The notes beneath the pieces are model-generated. The model saw only the letters and a program-made list of their open reading frames with translations. It was not told the origin of the DNA and did not search any database. From assembly GCF_002854065.1 (NCBI RefSeq), contig NZ_CP024147.1: 64,000 bases of DNA; one strand, given 5' to 3'. The position numbers and the translations under genes are program-made. Numbering within the stretch: position 1 is the first letter of the stretch; every line of letters begins with the position of its first letter. Below, one piece after another: positions 16,188 to 47,336 of the stretch. Origin of the DNA: Escherichia coli (GTDB taxonomy: Bacteria > Pseudomonadota > Gammaproteobacteria > Enterobacterales > Enterobacteriaceae).

Positions 16188-16468
16188 GTTGGAGTCATTA
16201 CCAACGCGGTAATAGAGAAAGAGGTTAATTTCATTTGGCAAAGGGAAGTATCATCAGCAAAATTTTCGCTGTAGAGGTATCGAATTTCCTGACTTTTTTA
16301 CCCTATTTCCCATCCTGATGCGTAATAATCCCAATTTATCACATTGATTTTATCGCCACTCATATTGATACGTATCACTGTCCCTATTCAGAGTCCTGTT
16401 TCGTATCATATCTGTGTTTTTTTAACGTCATCACACTTCCTTCCTCCCCTAACGCTTATCGTCGTTTC

Positions 16469-20241: not shown

Positions 20242-22020
20242 TTATGTGTTTAACAACTCATATTTCTTAATCTTGCGATAGAGCGTAGCAATGCCGATGC
20301 CCAGTTCATCAGCAACTTGCTTCTTGCTGTTATGACGTGAAAGCGCCTCGCGGATCATTTGCTTTTCCATCTCCTCCAGCGCCGTGCCGCCCGCATCATC
20401 GAGTGACAGGTGTGCCTCAGTGACCTCTGTTACATCACTTTGCTCCGTTGTGCCATTATTCAGCAGATTTGGCGGCAATAGCGTGCTGTCGATAACTTCA
20501 CCTGAAGGAACAACGTTAACCAGATATTCCATCAAATTGCTTAACTCGCGCAGGTTTCCGGGCCAACGATGCTTACGCAATATTTCGACGACATCGGGAG
20601 CAATGCCAGGATAAACCGATCCCAGACGACGGGTATGCAGATGTAAAAAGTAATGCACCAGTAGTTCAATATCTTCCTGACGTTCACGCAGCGGTGGCAG
20701 AGTTATCGGGATAACATTAAGTCGGTAGAAGAGATCTTCGCGGAATTTACCTTCGGCAATGAACTGGGCCAAATTCTGGTTAGTTGCAGAAATGATGCGA
20801 ATGTCGACTTGTATTGGGCTACTGGCACCAATCGGCAGAATTTCACGTGCCTCAATAGCGCGCAGTAATTTAGCCTGCAACATTAATGGCATATCACCTA
20901 TTTCATCTAGAAACAGCGTGCCCGTATTCGCCGCCTGAATCAACCCTGTTTTACCGTTGGCAGAAGCGCCAGTAAATGCGCCTTTAACATAACCGAACAG
21001 TTCGCTCTCCAGAAGCTGCTCCGGAATCGCGGCACAGTTGATAGCAATAAAGGGTTTATTCCGTCTTCCGCTCAACTTATGGATTGCACGGGCGACGACT
21101 TCTTTACCCGTGCCGCTTTCACCAACCACCATAACGCTGGATGGGCTGGGTGCAATACGGCTAATGAGTCGTTTTAATTGCCGCATAACACGGCACTCGC
21201 CAACCAATTGTTCAATATGCGGTTCATCAGGTGCATTTGCTACAGAAAAACTGGTATGCGATTGGTGAAACGCCATTAAAAATAATTGTCGGCCCTGAAT
21301 GTTATGCAATTGGCCAATGATTAATTCACTTTTATCGTCCCACGAAACAATATGCTGCATATGTCCATGGGTAAAATTACTCTCAAATGTTAATGGTCTG
21401 AAACGGATAGGTTTCCCAATAATATTATTTTGTACAATACCAAGTGTTTTTAAGGCAGTCTGATTAACAAACTGAACCCGACTTTCATCATCAACAACTA
21501 ATACGCCCTGATCCATATTATCGATCATGGTCGCGAATATTTTACTGATGTTATCTCCTGGCCCCTGATCCTCCAGAAGTTTCGAAACAAAAATGGTGGA
21601 TATATGGCGAACATAATCAGAAAATTCGCGTAAATTATCACTGATATGCTCTTGTTGCTCGTGGGTAACGGCAATCAAACTTATCACCCCAACACAACGA
21701 TCCTGTAAAATGACAGGCGTACCCAGAAATGCTTTTTCGCGGCAATTTTCTTTACTATCGCAACCTTCGCAAAGGGGATCGAAGCGAGACTGTGTCACAA
21801 CTTTTTCAGTTTTCGTTTCCAGGACGTGGCGGAGCAGGCGTGAGTTGCCGCTCAACTGGCGACCAAGAAACTTCCCATACGCGCCAGTTCCGGCGACGCG
21901 ACACAAGTTTTCATCAACGATCTCAACCTCAAGCTGCAAAACGCTGGCAAGCATTCTGGCAAAACGCTGAATTGTCGGTTGAATTTGCATCAATACTGAC
22001 TGCGTAGTAGCAAGCTCCAT
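20242..22020 (-). CDS. ygeV: Sigma-54-dependent transcriptional activator (enhancer-binding protein)
   Basis: 592-aa ORF with central AAA+ domain (VVGESGTGKE Walker A; GAFTGA motif) and C-terminal HTH. Confidence 0.92.
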   Translation of the reverse strand: MELATTQSVLMQIQPTIQRFARMLASVLQLEVEIVDENLCRVAGTGAYGKFLGRQLSGNSRLLRHVLETKTEKVVTQSRFDPLCEGCDSKENCREKAFLGTPVILQDRCVGVISLIAVTHEQQEHISDNLREFSDYVRHISTIFVSKLLEDQGPGDNISKIFATMIDNMDQGVLVVDDESRVQFVNQTALKTLGIVQNNIIGKPIRFRPLTFESNFTHGHMQHIVSWDDKSELIIGQLHNIQGRQLFLMAFHQSHTSFSVANAPDEPHIEQLVGECRVMRQLKRLISRIAPSPSSVMVVGESGTGKEVVARAIHKLSGRRNKPFIAINCAAIPEQLLESELFGYVKGAFTGASANGKTGLIQAANTGTLFLDEIGDMPLMLQAKLLRAIEAREILPIGASSPIQVDIRIISATNQNLAQFIAEGKFREDLFYRLNVIPITLPPLRERQEDIELLVHYFLHLHTRRLGSVYPGIAPDVVEILRKHRWPGNLRELSNLMEYLVNVVPSGEVIDSTLLPPNLLNNGTTEQSDVTEVTEAHLSLDDAGGTALEEMEKQMIREALSRHNSKKQVADELGIGIATLYRKIKKYELLNT

Positions 22021-22389
22021 AGCTTTACCTTCCAGACTTACTTAAAAGTCGATCATTGAAGACGTTGATGGTTCACAGATCATGATGATATTAACTCAGG
22101 CGAAATTGGCTTTGATAAAAACATAAGATTTTTATCACTTTCTAATGAAATTATGGAAGAGATATCACATTTCTATATCAATATGAGAATTACGGCGGTG
22201 AGTTTATCAAACTGACGAGGGATAGCCTGCCCCTTTATCTTATTTCTGATACTTAGCAGCAAATAAATAACGCAATAAAAAAAGCCAAACGTTTTCGTAT
22301 TTTACAAACAACCGGAAGCTAGCATCAATTTGTGATCAACCCCACACATTATCCGTCAAATTAGTCTTTTGCAGCCCCGTGGATAATTC

Positions 22390-23743: not shown

Positions 23744-24940
23744 ATGTCCGTTTTCTCATTGAAGATTGATATCGCCGATAACAAATTTTTCAACGGCGAA
23801 ACATCACCGCTCTTTTCGCAAAGCCAGGCCAAACTGGCGCGCCAGTTCCACCAGAAAATAGCTGGTTATCGCCCAACACCGCTTTGTGCGCTGGACGATC
23901 TCGCAAACCTTTTTGGTGTGAAGAAAATTCTTGTCAAAGACGAATCAAAACGATTCGGTCTGAACGCCTTCAAAATGCTCGGCGGTGCGTACGCCATCGC
24001 TCAATTATTGTGTGAAAAATATCATCTTGATATCGAAACGCTGTCATTTGAGCACCTGAAAAATGCCATCGGCGAAAAAATGACTTTCGCGACCACCACC
24101 GACGGCAACCACGGGCGCGGTGTGGCGTGGGCAGCGCAGCAACTCGGACAGAATGCGGTGATTTACATGCCGAAAGGTTCTGCTCAGGAACGCGTTGACG
24201 CCATTCTGAACCTCGGTGCCGAGTGCATCGTCACGGATATGAACTATGACGATACCGTTCGCCTGACCATGCAACACGCGCAGCAGCACGGCTGGGAAGT
24301 GGTACAGGACACGGCATGGGAAGGTTACACCAAAATCCCAACCTGGATCATGCAAGGCTACGCAACCCTGGCAGATGAAGCCGTCGAGCAAATGCGTGAA
24401 ATGGGCGTAACCCCGACGCACGTTCTGCTGCAAGCCGGTGTCGGAGCAATGGCCGGTGGTGTGCTGGGTTATCTGGTCGACGTCTATAGCCCGCAAAATC
24501 TGCACAGCATTATTGTTGAACCTGACAAAGCTGACTGTATTTATCGCTCCGGCGTCAAAGGCGACATCGTCAACGTTGGCGGTGATATGGCCACCATCAT
24601 GGCGGGCCTGGCCTGTGGCGAACCTAACCCGCTGGGCTGGGAAATCCTACGTAACTGCGCCACCCAATTCATCTCCTGCCAGGACAGCGTTGCCGCATTA
24701 GGTATGCGCGTGCTGGGTAATCCGTACGGCAACGACCCGCGCATCATCTCCGGTGAATCCGGCGCTGTCGGTTTGGGCGTTCTCGCGGCGGTTCATTATC
24801 ACCCGCAACGTCAAAGCCTGATGGAAAAACTGGCGCTGAACAAAGATGCCGTAGTGCTGGTTATCAGCACTGAAGGTGACACCGACGTGAAGCACTATCG
24901 CGAAGTTGTCTGGGAAGGCAAACACGCTGTAGCACCTTAA
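23744..24940 (+). CDS. ygeX: Diaminopropionate ammonia-lyase (PLP-dependent, fold type II)
   Basis: 398-aa ORF; AAGGA Shine-Dalgarno upstream. Confidence 0.9.
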   Translation: MSVFSLKIDIADNKFFNGETSPLFSQSQAKLARQFHQKIAGYRPTPLCALDDLANLFGVKKILVKDESKRFGLNAFKMLGGAYAIAQLLCEKYHLDIETLSFEHLKNAIGEKMTFATTTDGNHGRGVAWAAQQLGQNAVIYMPKGSAQERVDAILNLGAECIVTDMNYDDTVRLTMQHAQQHGWEVVQDTAWEGYTKIPTWIMQGYATLADEAVEQMREMGVTPTHVLLQAGVGAMAGGVLGYLVDVYSPQNLHSIIVEPDKADCIYRSGVKGDIVNVGGDMATIMAGLACGEPNPLGWEILRNCATQFISCQDSVAALGMRVLGNPYGNDPRIISGESGAVGLGVLAAVHYHPQRQSLMEKLALNKDAVVLVISTEGDTDVKHYREVVWEGKHAVAP

Positions 24941-30340: not shown

Positions 30341-31111
30341 CTAATTCACAAATCTGCGCGCGATTGCAGGATGTTCTTGTATATCGCCCAGCCAGATTGC
30401 CTCTACGTCATGTTGTTGCAGCGGTTGAAGGAGCTCGCTTTGTGCAATCGCATTCTCACATTGAGAAAAACGGTTAATGAACCAGACTCGCCGACAACCT
30501 TGCGGTACGTTTTTAAACGCCCCCTGAGGGTGGCGAACCAGCGCAACGAGATCGCTCAGTTGCAAGGTTGCATCAGGTGTTAACCCGGTAATATCAGCAA
30601 ACTGCGACCAGCGATGGACATTTTCTGTGCTCACTTTCGCGCCCAAAGTATGTCCTCCCATCACAGCAATCACGCAGCAACTGCTTTTGGGTATGCAAGG
30701 TTCGTGCTCATCAGGCGCTTTTAACGGCATTCCACGCGAGCCATCTGCTTCAATGAGAATTACGTCACACTCTGGTCGTTGCACCAGTGCATCAATCGCT
30801 TCTGGCGTAAATCCCTGCACTTTTCCCTGGTTCGCTTTCCAGCTGTGAAAACAAAATGAAATGGGGGATGTAAGAGACGCATGAGGAAGCATGGCGGGAT
30901 CACGACAGAAAACCACGGGCCAGTGTGACTTTGGCATAAACATATGTGTCGTCGTAGTGATTAACACACGCCTGCCGCGAGTCTGGAGCAGTTCTGCCAG
31001 CCAAAAAAGCAAGCTGGTTTTCCCCCCAGCACCAACAACAGAAATCACAGTGGGACGTTTCTGCGCACCTAAATCAATGAATAATGCCGATGGGTCAACT
31101 ATACTTTTCAC
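30341..31111 (-). CDS. yqeC: Putative selenium-dependent hydroxylase accessory protein YqeC (P-loop protein)
   Basis: 256-aa ORF with N-terminal Walker A (VVGAGGKTSL). Confidence 0.85.
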   Translation of the reverse strand: MKSIVDPSALFIDLGAQKRPTVISVVGAGGKTSLLFWLAELLQTRGRRVLITTTTHMFMPKSHWPVVFCRDPAMLPHASLTSPISFCFHSWKANQGKVQGFTPEAIDALVQRPECDVILIEADGSRGMPLKAPDEHEPCIPKSSCCVIAVMGGHTLGAKVSTENVHRWSQFADITGLTPDATLQLSDLVALVRHPQGAFKNVPQGCRRVWFINRFSQCENAIAQSELLQPLQQHDVEAIWLGDIQEHPAIARRFVN

Positions 31112-31213: not shown

Positions 31214-31792
31214 ATGTCAGCCATCGACTGTATAATTACCGCTGCCGGATTATCATCAAGAATGGGGCAATGGAAAATGATGTTACCCTGGCAACAGGGA
31301 ACAATTCTTGATACAAGTATCAAAAATGCGTTGCAGTTTTGTAGCCGAATTATTTTAGTCACCGGCTATCGTGGTAATGAACTGCACGAACGTTATGCGA
31401 ACCAGAGTAATATCACTATTATTCACAACCCAGATTATGCCCAGGGTTTACTAACATCAGTCAAGGCCGCAGTACCCGCAGTGCAAACAGAACATTGTTT
31501 TCTCACCCACGGTGACATGCCAACCCTCACCATTGATATTTTTAGAAAAATCTGGTCGTTACGAAATGATGGCGCAATACTGCCACTCCATAATGGCATC
31601 CCCGGCCATCCGATTTTAGTGTCAAAACCATGCTTGATGCAGGCATTCCAGCGACCCAATGTCACCAATATGCGTCAGGCACTCCTTATGGGAGATCATT
31701 ATTCCGTCGAAATAGAAAATGCAGAAATAATTTTAGATATTGATACTCCGGACGACTTTATTACAGCGAAGAAAAGGTATACTGAAATTTAG
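31214..31792 (+). CDS. mocA: Molybdenum cofactor cytidylyltransferase (MobA-like nucleotidyltransferase)
   Basis: 192-aa ORF with the N-terminal nucleotide-binding loop (ITAAGLSSRMG); K-12 synonym ygfJ. Confidence 0.88.
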   Translation: MSAIDCIITAAGLSSRMGQWKMMLPWQQGTILDTSIKNALQFCSRIILVTGYRGNELHERYANQSNITIIHNPDYAQGLLTSVKAAVPAVQTEHCFLTHGDMPTLTIDIFRKIWSLRNDGAILPLHNGIPGHPILVSKPCLMQAFQRPNVTNMRQALLMGDHYSVEIENAEIILDIDTPDDFITAKKRYTEI

Positions 31793-32016
31793 AAAACGTA
31801 GTTAAACGATTGCGTTCAAATATTTAACCCCTCCAGCACTCTTTATCATAATGATAAGGAATCACTGATTTTGAGAAAAGAGAAAAAGTGATAAATGGGC
31901 TGGCAATAATAATTTTCAGGAGTGATTTTAATTCTCATTTGGCACCTGTGAGTTCATTCACAAAAAGCCCTTAAGTTTCGAGCCGCCTCACATTTTTTTA
32001 TATTTCCCGCCAAACC

Positions 32017-32032
32017 TGGCAAGAGTGGTGCG
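32017..32032 (+). promoter_or_regulatory. Candidate sigma-54 promoter upstream of ygfK
   Basis: TGGCAAGAGTGGTGCG: GG and GC at canonical spacing, -12 region GTGC; about 85 bp upstream of ygfK. Confidence 0.35.
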
Positions 32033-32113
32033 ATTGTTGCTCTATCCCCCTAAACCACCGGATTTCTCAACACCGGTCACTCAATGATATCTGTATAAGC
32101 TAAGGAGAGGGTT

Positions 32114-35100
32114 ATGGGGGATATTATGCGTCCCATTCCGTTTGAGGAACTTTTGACGCGCATATTTGATGAATACCAACAACAACGCTCAATCTTTGGT
32201 ATTCCCGAGCAACAGTTTTACTCACCCGTAAAAGGTAAAACTGTTAGCGTCTTCGGTGAAACCTGTGCCACTCCCGTCGGCCCTGCCGCTGGCCCGCACA
32301 CGCAGCTCGCGCAAAATATTGTCACTTCCTGGCTGACTGGCGGACGCTTCATCGAACTAAAAACCGTCCAAATTCTTGACCGCCTGGAGCTGGAAAAGCC
32401 TTGTATCGATGCCGAAGACGAGTGCTTTAACACCGAATGGTCTACCGAATTTACCCTGCTTAAAGCCTGGGATGAATACCTCAAAGCCTGGTTTGCCCTG
32501 CACCTTCTCGAAGCGATCTTCCAGCCTTCTGATTCCGGTAAATCGTTCATCTTTAATATGAGCGTTGGTTACAACCTCGAAGGTATTAAGCAACCGCCGA
32601 TGCAACAGTTCATCGACAATATGATGGACGCATCTGACCATCCGAAATTCGCGCAATATCGCGATACGCTGAATAAATTACTCCAGGATGACGCATTTTT
32701 AGCCCGCCACGGATTGCAGGAAAAACGCGAAAGCTTGCAAGCCTTACCCGCTCGCATCCCCACCAGTATGGTGCAGGGCGTCACCCTCTCCACCATGCAC
32801 GGCTGTCCTCCGCATGAAATCGAAGCCATTTGCCGCTACATGCTGGAAGAAAAAGGGCTCAACACCTTTGTCAAACTTAACCCGACCTTACTCGGGTACG
32901 CGCGTGTTCGTGAGATCCTCGATGTCTGCGGTTTCGGTTACATAGGCTTAAAAGAAGAGTCATTTGATCACGACCTCAAGCTGACGCAAGCACTGGAAAT
33001 GCTGGAACGCCTGATGGCACTGGCAAAAGAAAAATCACTCGGCTTTGGCGTAAAACTGACTAACACTCTCGGCACCATCAACAATAAAGGCGCACTGCCC
33101 GGTGAAGAGATGTATATGTCAGGCCGTGCGCTGTTCCCGCTCTCCATCAATGTTGCAGCAGTTCTCTCTCGCGCCTTTGACGGCAAACTGCCCATTTCTT
33201 ATTCCGGTGGTGCCAGTCAGCTGACTATCCGCGATATTTTTGATACAGGTATTCGCCCTATTACTATGGCAACCGACCTGCTGAAACCTGGCGGCTATCT
33301 GCGCTTAAGTGCCTGCATGCGCGAGCTGGAAGGCTCCGACGCCTGGGGACTTGACCATGTTGACGTCGAACGACTGAACAGACTGGCAGCAGACGCGTTA
33401 ACCATGGAATACACCCAGAAACACTGGAAGCCAGAAGAGCGTATTGAAGTGGCAGAAGACCTGCCGCTGACCGACTGCTACGTTGCCCCCTGTGTTACTG
33501 CCTGCGCTATCAAGCAAGATATTCCGGAATACATCCGTCTGCTTGGCGAACACCGCTATGCCGACGCGCTGGAACTCATCTACCAACGCAACGCCCTACC
33601 TGCCATTACCGGTCATATTTGCGATCACCAGTGCCAATACAACTGTACCCGCCTGGATTACGACAGTGCGCTGAATATCCGCGAACTGAAAAAAGTCGCG
33701 CTGGAAAAAGGTTGGGATGAATATAAGCAACGTTGGCACAAACCAGCCGGTTCTGGTTCACGCCATCCGGTTGCCGTGATTGGTGCAGGTCCGGCGGGTC
33801 TGGCAGCAGGTTACTTTCTTGCCAGAGCGGGCCATCCGGTTACGCTGTTTGAACGCGAAGCCAATGCAGGCGGCGTGGTGAAAAATATCATCCCTCAGTT
33901 CCGTATTCCTGCAGAGTTAATTCAGCACGATATCGATTTTATTGCCGCTCACGGCGTGAAATTTGAGTATGGCTGCCCACCCGATTTAACCGTTGAACAG
34001 TTAAAAAATCAGGGCTTCCATTATGTTCTGATTGCCACAGGCACCGACAAAAATAGCGGTGTGAAACTGGCGGGCGACAACCAAAATGTCTGGAAATCAC
34101 TCCCCTTCCTGCGTGAATACAACAAGGGTACAGCGCTCAAGCTGGGCAAACATGTGGTCGTTGTCGGGGCGGGTAACACCGCAATGGACTGCGCTCGTGC
34201 GGCGTTACGCGTTCCAGGCGTAGAAAAAGCAACGATCGTTTACCGTCGTTCACTGCAAGAGATGCCCGCATGGCGCGAAGAGTATGAAGAAGCGTTGCAC
34301 GACGGCGTGGAGTTCCGTTTCCTGAACAATCCGGAACGTTTCGATGCTGATGGCACCTTAACCTTGCGCGTTATGTCGCTTGGCGAACCGGATGAGAAAG
34401 GTCGTCGTCGTCCGGTTGAAACCAACGAAACAGTAACACTGCTTGTAGACAGCCTGATCACCGCCATTGGTGAACAGCAGGATACTGAAGCCCTGAATGC
34501 GATGGGCGTGCCGCTGGACAAAAACGGCTGGCCAGACGTCGACCATAATGGCGAAACTCGTCTGACTGACGTCTTTATGATCGGCGACGTACAGCGCGGA
34601 CCATCCTCCATTGTCGCTGCTGTCGGAACCGCGCGTCGGGCGACCGATGCCATCCTTAGTCGGGAAAATATCCGTTCCCACCAGAACGATAAATACTGGA
34701 ACAACGTCAATCCGGCGGAAATCTATCAACGTAAAGGCGATATCTCTATCACGCTGGTGAACAGTGACGATCGTGACGCGTTTGTCGCCCAGGAAGCCGC
34801 TCGCTGCCTCGAATGTAACTACGTTTGCAGCAAGTGTGTGGATGTCTGCCCGAACCGCGCCAACGTCTCCATTGCGGTCCCAGGCTTCCAGAACCGTTTC
34901 CAGACGCTGCACCTCGACGCTTACTGTAACGAATGCGGCAACTGCGCTCAGTTCTGTCCGTGGAACGGTAAACCATACAAAGACAAAATCACCGTCTTCA
35001 GCCTGGCGCAAGACTTTGATAACAGCAGCAACCCAGGCTTCCTTGTGGAAGATTGCCGGGTACGAGTACGTCTGAATAACCAAAGCTGGGTGTTAAACAT

Positions 35101-35212
35101 CGACAGCAAAGGTCAGTTTAACAACGTACCACCGGAGCTGAACGATATGTGCCGCATCATCAGCCATGTCCACCAGCATCATCATTATATGCTGGGCCGC
35201 GTGGAGGTGTAA
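32114..35212 (+). CDS. ygfK: Large Fe-S/flavin oxidoreductase (putative selenate reductase-associated subunit)
   Basis: 1032-aa ORF with FAD/NAD(P) dinucleotide-binding motifs ([12 protein letters not shown]; VVVGAGNTAMD) and C-terminal ferredoxin-like Cys clusters. Confidence 0.9.
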   Translation: MGDIMRPIPFEELLTRIFDEYQQQRSIFGIPEQQFYSPVKGKTVSVFGETCATPVGPAAGPHTQLAQNIVTSWLTGGRFIELKTVQILDRLELEKPCIDAEDECFNTEWSTEFTLLKAWDEYLKAWFALHLLEAIFQPSDSGKSFIFNMSVGYNLEGIKQPPMQQFIDNMMDASDHPKFAQYRDTLNKLLQDDAFLARHGLQEKRESLQALPARIPTSMVQGVTLSTMHGCPPHEIEAICRYMLEEKGLNTFVKLNPTLLGYARVREILDVCGFGYIGLKEESFDHDLKLTQALEMLERLMALAKEKSLGFGVKLTNTLGTINNKGALPGEEMYMSGRALFPLSINVAAVLSRAFDGKLPISYSGGASQLTIRDIFDTGIRPITMATDLLKPGGYLRLSACMRELEGSDAWGLDHVDVERLNRLAADALTMEYTQKHWKPEERIEVAEDLPLTDCYVAPCVTACAIKQDIPEYIRLLGEHRYADALELIYQRNALPAITGHICDHQCQYNCTRLDYDSALNIRELKKVALEKGWDEYKQRWHKPAGSGSRHPVAVIGAGPAGLAAGYFLARAGHPVTLFEREANAGGVVKNIIPQFRIPAELIQHDIDFIAAHGVKFEYGCPPDLTVEQLKNQGFHYVLIATGTDKNSGVKLAGDNQNVWKSLPFLREYNKGTALKLGKHVVVVGAGNTAMDCARAALRVPGVEKATIVYRRSLQEMPAWREEYEEALHDGVEFRFLNNPERFDADGTLTLRVMSLGEPDEKGRRRPVETNETVTLLVDSLITAIGEQQDTEALNAMGVPLDKNGWPDVDHNGETRLTDVFMIGDVQRGPSSIVAAVGTARRATDAILSRENIRSHQNDKYWNNVNPAEIYQRKGDISITLVNSDDRDAFVAQEAARCLECNYVCSKCVDVCPNRANVSIAVPGFQNRFQTLHLDAYCNECGNCAQFCPWNGKPYKDKITVFSLAQDFDNSSNPGFLVEDCRVRVRLNNQSWVLNIDSKGQFNNVPPELNDMCRIISHVHQHHHYMLGRVEV

Positions 35213-35214
35213 TC

Positions 35215-36543
35215 ATGTTGATTCTGAAGAATGTCACCGCAGTGCAGTTACACCCGGCGAAAGTGCAGGAAGGCGTTGATATCGCTATCGAAAATGATGT
35301 GATTGTCGCTATCGGAGATGCCCTGACGCAACGCTATCCCGATGCCAGCTACAAAGAGATGCATGGTCGGATTGTGATGCCGGGAATTGTCTGCTCGCAC
35401 AACCATTTTTACTCGGGGCTTTCCCGCGGAATTATGGCAAACATCGCCCCTTGCCCGGATTTCATCTCAACGCTGAAAAATCTCTGGTGGCGGCTCGATC
35501 GCGCCCTTGATGAAGAGTCGCTCTATTACAGCGGACTGATTTGTTCCCTGGAAGCGATTAAGAGCGGATGTACATCGGTTATCGATCACCATGCCTCTCC
35601 GGCGTATATCGGCGGGTCGCTCTCCACATTGCGCGACGCATTTTTAAAAGTTGGCCTGCGCGCGATGACCTGTTTTGAAACTACTGACCGTAACAACGGC
35701 ATCAAAGAGTTGCAGGAAGGTGTAGAAGAAAACATCCGCTTCGCCCGTCAGATTGATGAGGCGAAGAAAGCAGCAACCGAGCCGTATCTGGTGGAAGCAC
35801 ATATCGGTGCTCACGCGCCGTTTACCGTGCCAGATGCCGGTCTGGAGATGCTGCGTGAAGCCGTGAAAGCCACAGGCCGTGGTTTGCATATTCACGCTGC
35901 GGAAGACCTTTACGACGTTTCCTACAGTCACCACTGGTACGGCAAAGACCTGCTGGCACGACTGGCGCAATTCGATCTCATCGACAGCAAAACGCTGGTC
36001 GCTCATGGGCTGTACTTGTCGAAAGATGACATCGCCCTACTCAATCAGCGCGATGCGTTCCTGGTGCATAACGCCCGTTCAAACATGAACAACCATGTCG
36101 GCTACAACCATCACCTTAGCGACATCCGCAATCTGGCATTGGGAACAGATGGCATTGGTTCGGACATGTTTGAAGAGATGAAATTTGCCTTCTTTAAACA
36201 TCGCGACGCGGGTGGTCCGCTGTGGCCTGACAGTTTTGCCAAAGCCCTGACTAACGGTAACGAACTGATGAGCCGCAACTTTGGCGCGAAATTTGGGCTT
36301 CTGGAAGCCGGTTACAAAGCTGATTTAACCATTTGCGATTACAACTGGCCGACGCCGCTGCTGGCAGACAATATCGCCGGGCATATCGCTTTCGGTATGG
36401 GCTCAGGCAGCGTTCACAGCGTGATGGTCAATGGTGTGATGGTCTATGAAGACCGTCAGTTTAACTTCGATTGCGATTCCATTTATGCACAAGCCAGAAA
36501 AGCCGCTGCCAGTATGTGGCGTCGGATGGATGCGCTGGCATAA
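35215..36543 (+). CDS. ssnA: Amidohydrolase-superfamily protein (chlorohydrolase/deaminase-like)
   Basis: 442-aa ORF from MLILKNVTAVQ with the metal-binding HNHF motif; ATG lies 2 nt after the ygfK stop. Confidence 0.9.
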   Translation: MLILKNVTAVQLHPAKVQEGVDIAIENDVIVAIGDALTQRYPDASYKEMHGRIVMPGIVCSHNHFYSGLSRGIMANIAPCPDFISTLKNLWWRLDRALDEESLYYSGLICSLEAIKSGCTSVIDHHASPAYIGGSLSTLRDAFLKVGLRAMTCFETTDRNNGIKELQEGVEENIRFARQIDEAKKAATEPYLVEAHIGAHAPFTVPDAGLEMLREAVKATGRGLHIHAAEDLYDVSYSHHWYGKDLLARLAQFDLIDSKTLVAHGLYLSKDDIALLNQRDAFLVHNARSNMNNHVGYNHHLSDIRNLALGTDGIGSDMFEEMKFAFFKHRDAGGPLWPDSFAKALTNGNELMSRNFGAKFGLLEAGYKADLTICDYNWPTPLLADNIAGHIAFGMGSGSVHSVMVNGVMVYEDRQFNFDCDSIYAQARKAAASMWRRMDALA

Positions 36544-46985: not shown

Positions 46986-47336
46986 TTGCATCCCTTTCAT
47001 TTAATGAGTTATGTCTTCTCAAATTTCGCGATGCAATAAACGGGCATATATTAGGTAGCATGACCGTTTTAATTATAATTTTGCGACTGAGTTCAAATTA
47101 TTGCCCCTCAATCTATGCCGCTTTCATTATTTCAACATTGCCGATCAAAAGAGCGCTATCCAGATAAAAACGATTAAATGCGAGAGTGCGACATGCCAGA
47201 ATGATTAATGAAATATCAATATGAGAAAATTACAGATAATTCCATTGTCAGGTTCTCTTGTCATTTTCGTGGTTTAAGCACGATTATGTGATTGCCTCCG
47301 CAATTCCTGTCTCTAACTCCCCTTCCTCGCAAAAAC

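Follow-up and report, generated by a model that had tools for sequence, protein, structure and literature searches.

Which bases upstream of ygfK are used by sigma-54 RNA polymerase, and which activator would act on it there? The question arises in the purine/urate cluster of Escherichia coli, which makes up the window analysed here, a 64-kb stretch of DNA (64,000 nucleotides). An earlier note on this DNA had marked a sigma-54-like motif upstream of the ygfK-ssnA-ygfM-xdhD block and proposed that it links these genes to the activator of xdhABC. The 601 bases around the motif lie between mocA (ygfJ) and ygfK and have matches in over 5,100 complete E. coli genomes. The RefSeq annotation of an identical strain gives the order xdhABC, ygeV (opposite strand), ygeW-dpaL(ygeX)-ygeY-hyuA-arcC, yqeB and yqeC (opposite strand), followed by mocA, ygfK-ssnA-ygfM-xdhD, xanQ-guaD-ghxQ, ygfS and ygfT (opposite strand) and uacT, and thus bears out the four-gene block. 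In window coordinates, mocA spans 31214-31792, and ygfK, the first gene of its operon, spans 32114-35212 on the plus strand. Subtracting window coordinates from those of MG1655 (U00096.2) gives 2,981,788 at the xdhA and ygeW sites and 2,981,968 at the yqeC, ygfK and ygfT sites; as these offsets differ, the window seems, by arithmetic only, to be 180 bp short of MG1655 somewhere in ygeW-yqeC (22.4-30.7 kb).

The products of the operon carry out the first steps of a reductive route of uric-acid degradation that was described recently in gut bacteria (PMC12507026). XdhD-YgfM converts urate to 2,8-dioxopurine, which YgfK, acting in 2,8-dioxopurine reduction within this pathway, reduces and opens together with SsnA (PMC12507026; bioRxiv 10.1101/2025.05.19.654654).

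The feature is a real one of an ordinary kind, and the literature already has both sigma-54 control of ygfK and co-regulation of the gene with xdhABC. In 2010, Zhao, Liu and Burgess placed ygfK among 22 new sigma-54 regulon genes: its microarray signal rose 2.1-fold when sigma-54 was induced and dropped 2.4-fold when rpoN was deleted. Their Table 2 gives the promoter as aaccTGGCAAGAGTGGTGCGATtgtt at -97 to -80 (PMC2831329). The rpoN effects in that study are small (about 2-fold), and most of its list was considered to be false positives by Bonocora et al. (2015) (PMC4591121). The latter authors reported a strong sigma-54 ChIP-seq peak at ygfK in vivo (OS31; FAT 26, PSSM 10.06) with the motif GTGGTGCGATTGTTGCT, against FAT values of 11 at xdhA, 3 at ygeW and 3 at ygfT elsewhere in the cluster (PMC4591121). 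They predicted a start 62 nt before ygfK and pointed out that a predicted promoter was already in EcoCyc (PMC4591121). A fifth sigma-54 site of the cluster lies inside yqeC and faces yqeB (Bonocora IS34; PMC4591121). The two published assignments at ygfK differ by 9 bp, and the resolution of ChIP-seq is too coarse to separate registers so close together.

The motif of the earlier note is present in the sequence. Positions 32017-32032 read TGGCAAGAGTGGTGCG, with GG at 32018-32019 and GC at 32030-32031, 10 bases apart as in the canonical sigma-54 spacing. The spacer had been counted as N6 and is in fact N5 (TGGCAA, GAGTG and GTGCG, 16 bases in all). The distance of about 85 bp to the gene was a fair description, as the motif begins 97 bp and ends 82 bp before the ygfK ATG (32114). 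The idea is not new: the motif is letter for letter the promoter of Zhao, Liu and Burgess (TGGCAAGAGTGGTGCGAT, -97 to -80), an assignment since superseded by the ChIP-seq study. It has three mismatches to TGGCACGNNNNTTGCW, and the window contains 110 matches with at most three mismatches, compared with 122.6 +/- 10 expected from shuffled sequences, so that on its own the motif is not more than chance. The motif GTGGTGCGATTGTTGCT overlaps it 9 bp downstream on the same strand, at 32025-32041, with GG at 32027-32028 and GC at 32039-40, again 10 bases apart. The core of this second motif, TGGTGCGATTGTTGCT, has two mismatches to the 16-mer consensus TGGCAC-N5-TTGCW and departs from it at -22/-21 (TGGTGC versus TGGCAC).

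We scored both registers with a weight matrix built from 38 intergenic ChIP-seq-validated E. coli sigma-54 sites, leaving out the four sites within the window. The training sites score 8.1-20.8, with a median of 16.7. The downstream motif scores 12.2 (rank 4 of about 128,000 window positions), below the median of known sites, and the upstream 17-mer CTGGCAAGAGTGGTGCG (32016-32032, plus strand) scores 11.3 (rank 10), within the range of real sites and well below their median. With 11.3 against 12.2, the E. coli sequence alone cannot tell the two registers apart. The scan also returned CTGGCACGACTGGCGCA at 35953-35969, inside ssnA. It scores 12.4, above the ygfK promoter, but lacks the TTGC of a -12 element; it is absent from the published high-stringency ChIP-seq sites and is probably a chance match.

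We compared the ygfK orthologues of 80 species, taken with 3 kb of flank, and applied the matrix to the 400 bp that precede each start codon. The downstream register, TGG-N9-TTGC, was the best match (score at least 9.5) in 74 of the 80 species, 49-155 bp before the ygfK ATG. The background rate predicts about three loci by chance, although formal binomial p-values for this excess are too optimistic because the species are related and their independence is overstated. The species with this register include Enterobacterales, Aeromonas, Vibrio, Photobacterium, Shewanella and some Betaproteobacteria; examples of the orthologous promoters are CTGGTGCGAATGTTGCT, CTGGTGTGATTGTTGCT, CTGGCCTGATTGTTGCT and TTGGCGCAGTAGTTGCT. 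The other six are four Spirochaetes, an Ideonella and a locus whose flank is only 53 bp long. Of 72 distinct orthologous sequences, 71 have both GG and GC of the downstream register and 3 have those of the upstream register, counts that are inflated because the matrix hit served as their anchor. An independent check comes from a MAFFT alignment of 18 genera in which the matrix played no part: TGG (32026-32028) and TTGC (32037-32040) are invariant columns, and the spacer and flanks are variable.

The three sequences with the upstream GG and GC are all from Escherichia. This register scores positive in three Escherichia lineages only and decays within the genus from 11.1 to 8.6 and 7.3. Across the distinct orthologous sequences, the information content of positions 32016-32024 is below 0.6 bit, so the upstream -24 GG (32018-32019) lies in unconserved sequence. 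The upstream -12 GC (32030-32031) falls inside the -24 element TGGTGCG of the downstream register and is GT in most species, among them Klebsiella, Kluyvera, Raoultella, Enterobacter and Aeromonas, all of which have retained the operon together with the downstream motif. This comparison indicates that 32025-32041 is probably the working promoter, settling the register in favour of Bonocora et al., and that the upstream motif is most probably an Escherichia-specific look-alike in an overlapping register. The earlier note was right that a sigma-54 site precedes ygfK, as the ChIP-seq and microarray literature supports, and would have placed it 9 bp too far upstream.

The published ChIP-seq peak points the same way. 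Measured from the downstream motif, its centre is at +18, and from the upstream one it is at +27; the peak offsets at the other 41 intergenic sense sites have a mean of +5.2, a standard deviation of 5.7 and a maximum of 22. We consider it highly improbable that the upstream register, TGGCAA-N5-GTGCG (32017-32032), is the working -24/-12 element with a start near 32043. Its score is within the range of validated sites, MEME/BioProspector picked it in the 2010 study (PMC2831329), it is invariant in the sampled E. coli strains, and a ChIP-seq peak does not separate sites 9 bp apart; yet it is missing outside Escherichia and weakens inside the genus, its GC is replaced by GT where the operon persists, and it would require an offset larger than at any of the 41 other intergenic sites. 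Polymorphism within E. coli is of no help in choosing a register, because both are invariant in the sampled strains. Over 81 bp, 4470 of 5168 genomes are identical, and the sampled strains with an aligned difference (R3, 1444) carry a change at C32010, outside both motifs.

Both registers might also bind the sigma-54 holoenzyme in Escherichia in a mutually exclusive manner, giving two starts 9 nt apart or making the upstream copy a decoy that modulates occupancy. The near-equal scores on the same strand, the invariance of both across sampled E. coli and a ChIP signal beyond what motifs this modest would usually give (FAT 26, compared with 11 at xdhA and 3 at ygeW) are what such an arrangement would produce. 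Nothing requires the upstream site, however. It is lineage-specific, its unique positions vary in E. coli E69 and E. whittamii, and a match as good as this arises by chance about every 6-13 kb. We regard dual binding as very unlikely.

With the conserved -24/-12 element 9 bp downstream, the expected transcription start is near 32052, and not near 32045 as the earlier note had expected. Position 32052 (plus strand) lies 19 nt past the motif centre (32033) and leaves a 62-nt leader, following the rule of Bonocora et al., whose "distance 62" equals 32114 minus 32052. We found no mapped ygfK 5' end in the literature. The leader ends in a strong ribosome-binding site: the Shine-Dalgarno sequence AAGGAGAG and the RefSeq ATG of ygfK (32114) occupy 32102-32116 on the plus strand, and neither AAGGAGA nor ATGGG varies in the MAFFT alignment. 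The fold of the E. coli leader contains a stem-loop close to its 5' end, ACCGG-N11-CCGGU, at 32057-32077 (plus strand). Aeromonas, Photobacterium, Buttiauxella and others also have a hairpin at +5 to +30, formed by unrelated sequences; its mean z-score is -1.31, compared with -0.11 for a control segment, and z falls below -1.5 in 47% versus 9%. Taken as a whole, the E. coli leader has no unusual stability (z = 0.00), covariation of the hairpin within Enterobacteriaceae amounts to a single compensatory pair, and no Rfam family was detected in 31750-32250 even at a permissive E-value.

Occupancy by sigma-54 does not in itself make a promoter, as Bonocora et al. stressed for their binding sites in general (PMC4591121). 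Binding at ygfK could be non-productive, with the gene transcribed mainly by CRP-activated sigma-70 RNA polymerase or by read-through from mocA. CRP sites are present (see below), a TATATT hexamer is found at 31999-32004, and no terminator-like site follows mocA. Genomic SELEX in vitro with the RpoN holoenzyme recovered the ygeV/ygeW spacer and did not recover the ygfK site (PMC8743547). These points are outweighed by the retention of the -24/-12 element in more than 70 species, whereas TATATT is not conserved even within Enterobacteriaceae, and by the lack of a sigma-70 consensus match between the CRP site and ygfK. Furthermore, ygfK goes down in the rpoN deletion (PMC2831329), is co-expressed with the other sigma-54 operons of the cluster, and has orthologous genes that are predicted to be controlled by sigma-54 and an enhancer-binding protein (EBP) even in Clostridiales (PMC6615313). 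Non-productive binding is, in our assessment, very unlikely. The sole sigma-70-like match in the region (31824-31852) overlaps the palindrome described next, and its -35 hexamer is not conserved; we rejected it as a promoter.

A sigma-54 promoter at 32025-32041 would depend on an activator bound upstream, and the mocA-ygfK spacer contains a candidate upstream activating sequence. The palindrome TATCATAATGATA (TATCA-N3-TGATA) lies at 31844-31856, its centre at about -202 from the predicted start, and the core T.TCA...TGATA is invariant across the 18 genera of the MAFFT alignment. Its distance to the -24 motif is 160-161, 181-182 or 193-194 bp in most of 74 species (about 160-195 bp overall). 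Between the two main classes, -181 and -160, the difference is 21 bp, or two helical turns, as expected for a site whose position on the helical face is important. Of 94 such palindromes in 550 kb of related sequence from the 80 loci, 63 fall within a single 130-bp interval, -330 to -200 from the ygfK ATG. Ten of the Photobacterium/Vibrio loci also have paired full palindromes 29-30 bp apart, about 400-780 bp before ygfK, in addition to the palindrome near -194 relative to the promoter. Within 260 bp of these pairs, no second sigma-54-like site reaches a score of 11. Tandem copies of a palindrome are an arrangement typical of enhancer-binding proteins.

The palindrome also recurs at the other sigma-54 promoters of the cluster. 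The pattern TMTCANNNTGATA has four sites in the window, compared with 0.17 expected: one in the ygeV/ygeW spacer, one upstream of ygfK, one in the ygfT/uacT spacer and one inside dpaL, so that three lie in intergenic regions holding a sigma-54 site. Allowing one mismatch adds the region upstream of xdhA, and the palindrome is thus found upstream of all four intergenic sigma-54 sites (xdhA, ygeW, ygfK and ygfT). Upstream of the sigma-54 sites of the cluster, TATCA-N3-TGATA or its variant TCTCA/TGAGA occurs at 31844-31856, 16337-16349, 22176-22188, 22078-22090 and 47214-47226. An exact 14-mer, TTCTCATATTGATA, is common to the ygeW and ygfT regions of E. coli and the ygfK region of Kluyvera and Cedecea.

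We trained a palindrome matrix on ygfK sites from outside Escherichia only and then ran it on the E. coli window. The regulatory regions of ygfK, ygeW, ygfT and xdhA take ranks 1 to 4, and six of the top eight matches fall in the four spacers, whose combined length is 2.6% of the window (p about 8e-9). Strong matches also occur in coding sequence, at 24016-24036 (dpaL/ygeX; score 14.5) and at 30450-30470 (3' part of yqeC; score 14.0). The latter lies about 160 bp before the start of yqeB (minus strand), near but downstream of IS34 (30694-30710, minus strand). The matrix scan found no palindrome upstream of this yqeC-internal sigma-54 site.

The cluster encodes one enhancer-binding protein, YgeV (20242-22020, minus strand), which is of the standard type, with Sigma54_activat (9e-71), AAA_lid_14, HTH_8 and PAS domains. 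The published YgeV iModulon, a co-expression set, groups ygfK, ssnA, ygfM and xdhD with xdhABC, ygeWXY, hyuA, ygfT and uacT, and a ygeV mutant is cited in PMC10602906 as having reduced ygfT expression. The shared palindrome, the domains of YgeV and this co-expression together support the regulatory proposal of the earlier note, that ygfK has the same activator as xdhABC, at a level short of proof. YgeV would then presumably be the protein that binds the palindrome. We searched the 80 loci by tblastn and found no YgeV homologue within 3 kb of ygfK in other species; gene neighbourhood therefore cannot tie the palindrome to YgeV, and another regulator is possible. No paper describing a YgeV operator or binding motif was found in the searched literature. 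Fur, FNR, ModE, PurR and NtrC were considered as binders, and none of their known consensus sequences fits a conserved TATCA/TGATA with a variable spacer. In FNR sites and in the 7-1-7 form of Fur sites, the half-sites have the opposite orientation to those of this palindrome.

Two further conserved blocks resemble variant half-sites of the palindrome. The first, TTTTGAGAAA (31869-31878), contains TGAGAA, has TGA.AA invariant in the MAFFT alignment and keeps a constant distance of 28 bp from the palindrome in Enterobacterales; it is a putative functional element. The second, TGATTTTAATTCTCATT (31923-31939), contains TTCTCA, the other variant half-site, with TGA and TTC.CA invariant, and lies at about -93 from the -24 motif (in most Enterobacterales, TTCTCA is found at -92 to -95). 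This block may serve the activator as a second site or may have an architectural role.

At sigma-54 promoters, the interval that separates enhancer from promoter is usually where a DNA-bending factor binds. We saw by eye no convincing match to the IHF consensus (WATCAANNNNTTR) between the palindrome and the ygfK promoter. The interval contains the perfect CRP-type site TGTGAGTTCATTCACA at 31947-31962, centred at about -97.5 from the predicted start, which is the sole zero-mismatch TGTGA-N6-TCACA in the 64-kb window and is kept in most Enterobacterales. CRP would thus take the usual place of the bending factor. A second, weaker CRP-like block, TTCGAGCCGCCTCACA (TTCGA-N6-TCACA; 31977-31992), is centred at about -67.5, which puts the two blocks 30 bp apart, or about three helical turns. 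Its invariant columns in the MAFFT alignment, T..GA......TC.C, fall on positions of the CRP consensus, and it may be a second CRP site. The ygeW region has a CRP site with one mismatch at 22331-22346. Genomic SELEX for CRP recovered ygfK, ygeV<>ygeW and ygfT<>ygfU as targets (PMC3105977), and urate degradation by E. coli is glucose-repressed (PMC12507026).

We propose the following model, to which as a whole we assign a probability of roughly 0.8. The mocA-ygfK intergenic region would contain one conserved RpoN promoter, TGGTGC-N5-TTGCT (32026-32041), at which sigma-54 RNA polymerase is held as a closed complex. Only when an AAA+ enhancer-binding protein remodels this complex would ygfK-ssnA-ygfM-xdhD be transcribed, from about 32052. 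The activator would most likely be YgeV, bound to the palindrome at 31844-31856, about 200 bp upstream, and perhaps also to the TGAGAA and TTCTCA blocks, and it would reach the promoter via DNA looping. The intervening DNA would be bent by CRP-cAMP at 31947-31962, and perhaps by a second copy at 31977-31992, and the operon would in this way be subject to glucose repression. A broader proposal is that a YgeV operator at the palindrome and in-phase CRP sites form a composite enhancer common to the sigma-54 promoters of xdhA, ygeW, ygfK and ygfT; we give this an even chance.

The closest known systems are in the same cluster. The published site OS31, predicted in EcoCyc, is the same locus, with the same 17-mer (32025-32041), predicted start and 62-nt leader, and we find no substantive difference. 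The neighbouring sites at xdhA (OS29), ygeW (OS30) and ygfT (OS32) share with ygfK the sigma-54 motif, the cluster and the YgeV iModulon, and have a TATCA-N3-TGATA-type palindrome upstream, at -110 to -235; ygeW and ygfT, like ygfK, also bind CRP in SELEX. Among these promoters, ygfK has the strongest ChIP signal and is distinguished by a C-to-T and an A-to-G departure in the -24 element, and IS34 inside yqeC differs from it in having no upstream palindrome that we could find.

A similar combination of controls is known for the catabolic prpBCDE promoter of E. coli and Salmonella, where sigma-54 acts with PrpR, with dependence on IHF and CRP and control by cAMP-CRP. The activator and the signal differ from those at ygfK, which has a CRP site, and no evident IHF site, between enhancer and promoter. 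Outside this group, the DioR regulon of Clostridiales places orthologues of ygeW-ygfK-ssnA-ygeY, dpaL, yqeB and yqeC-ygfJ under sigma-54 and a dedicated EBP (PMC6615313). It differs in phylum and in the activator-binding motif, and is itself a computational reconstruction (PMC6615313).

The additions made here are modest: the register is resolved across species, and a candidate shared enhancer palindrome is described. The first would remove the 9-bp disagreement between two published assignments. The uric-acid pathway is being engineered into probiotic strains against hyperuricaemia, and the exact register, with the likely enhancer and the CRP site, offers an engineer's guide to the bases to keep or replace. 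The composite enhancer, if true, would be conserved from Enterobacterales to Aeromonas, Vibrionaceae and Shewanella, and would define a gamma-proteobacterial urate-degradation regulon that joins a purine signal with catabolite repression.
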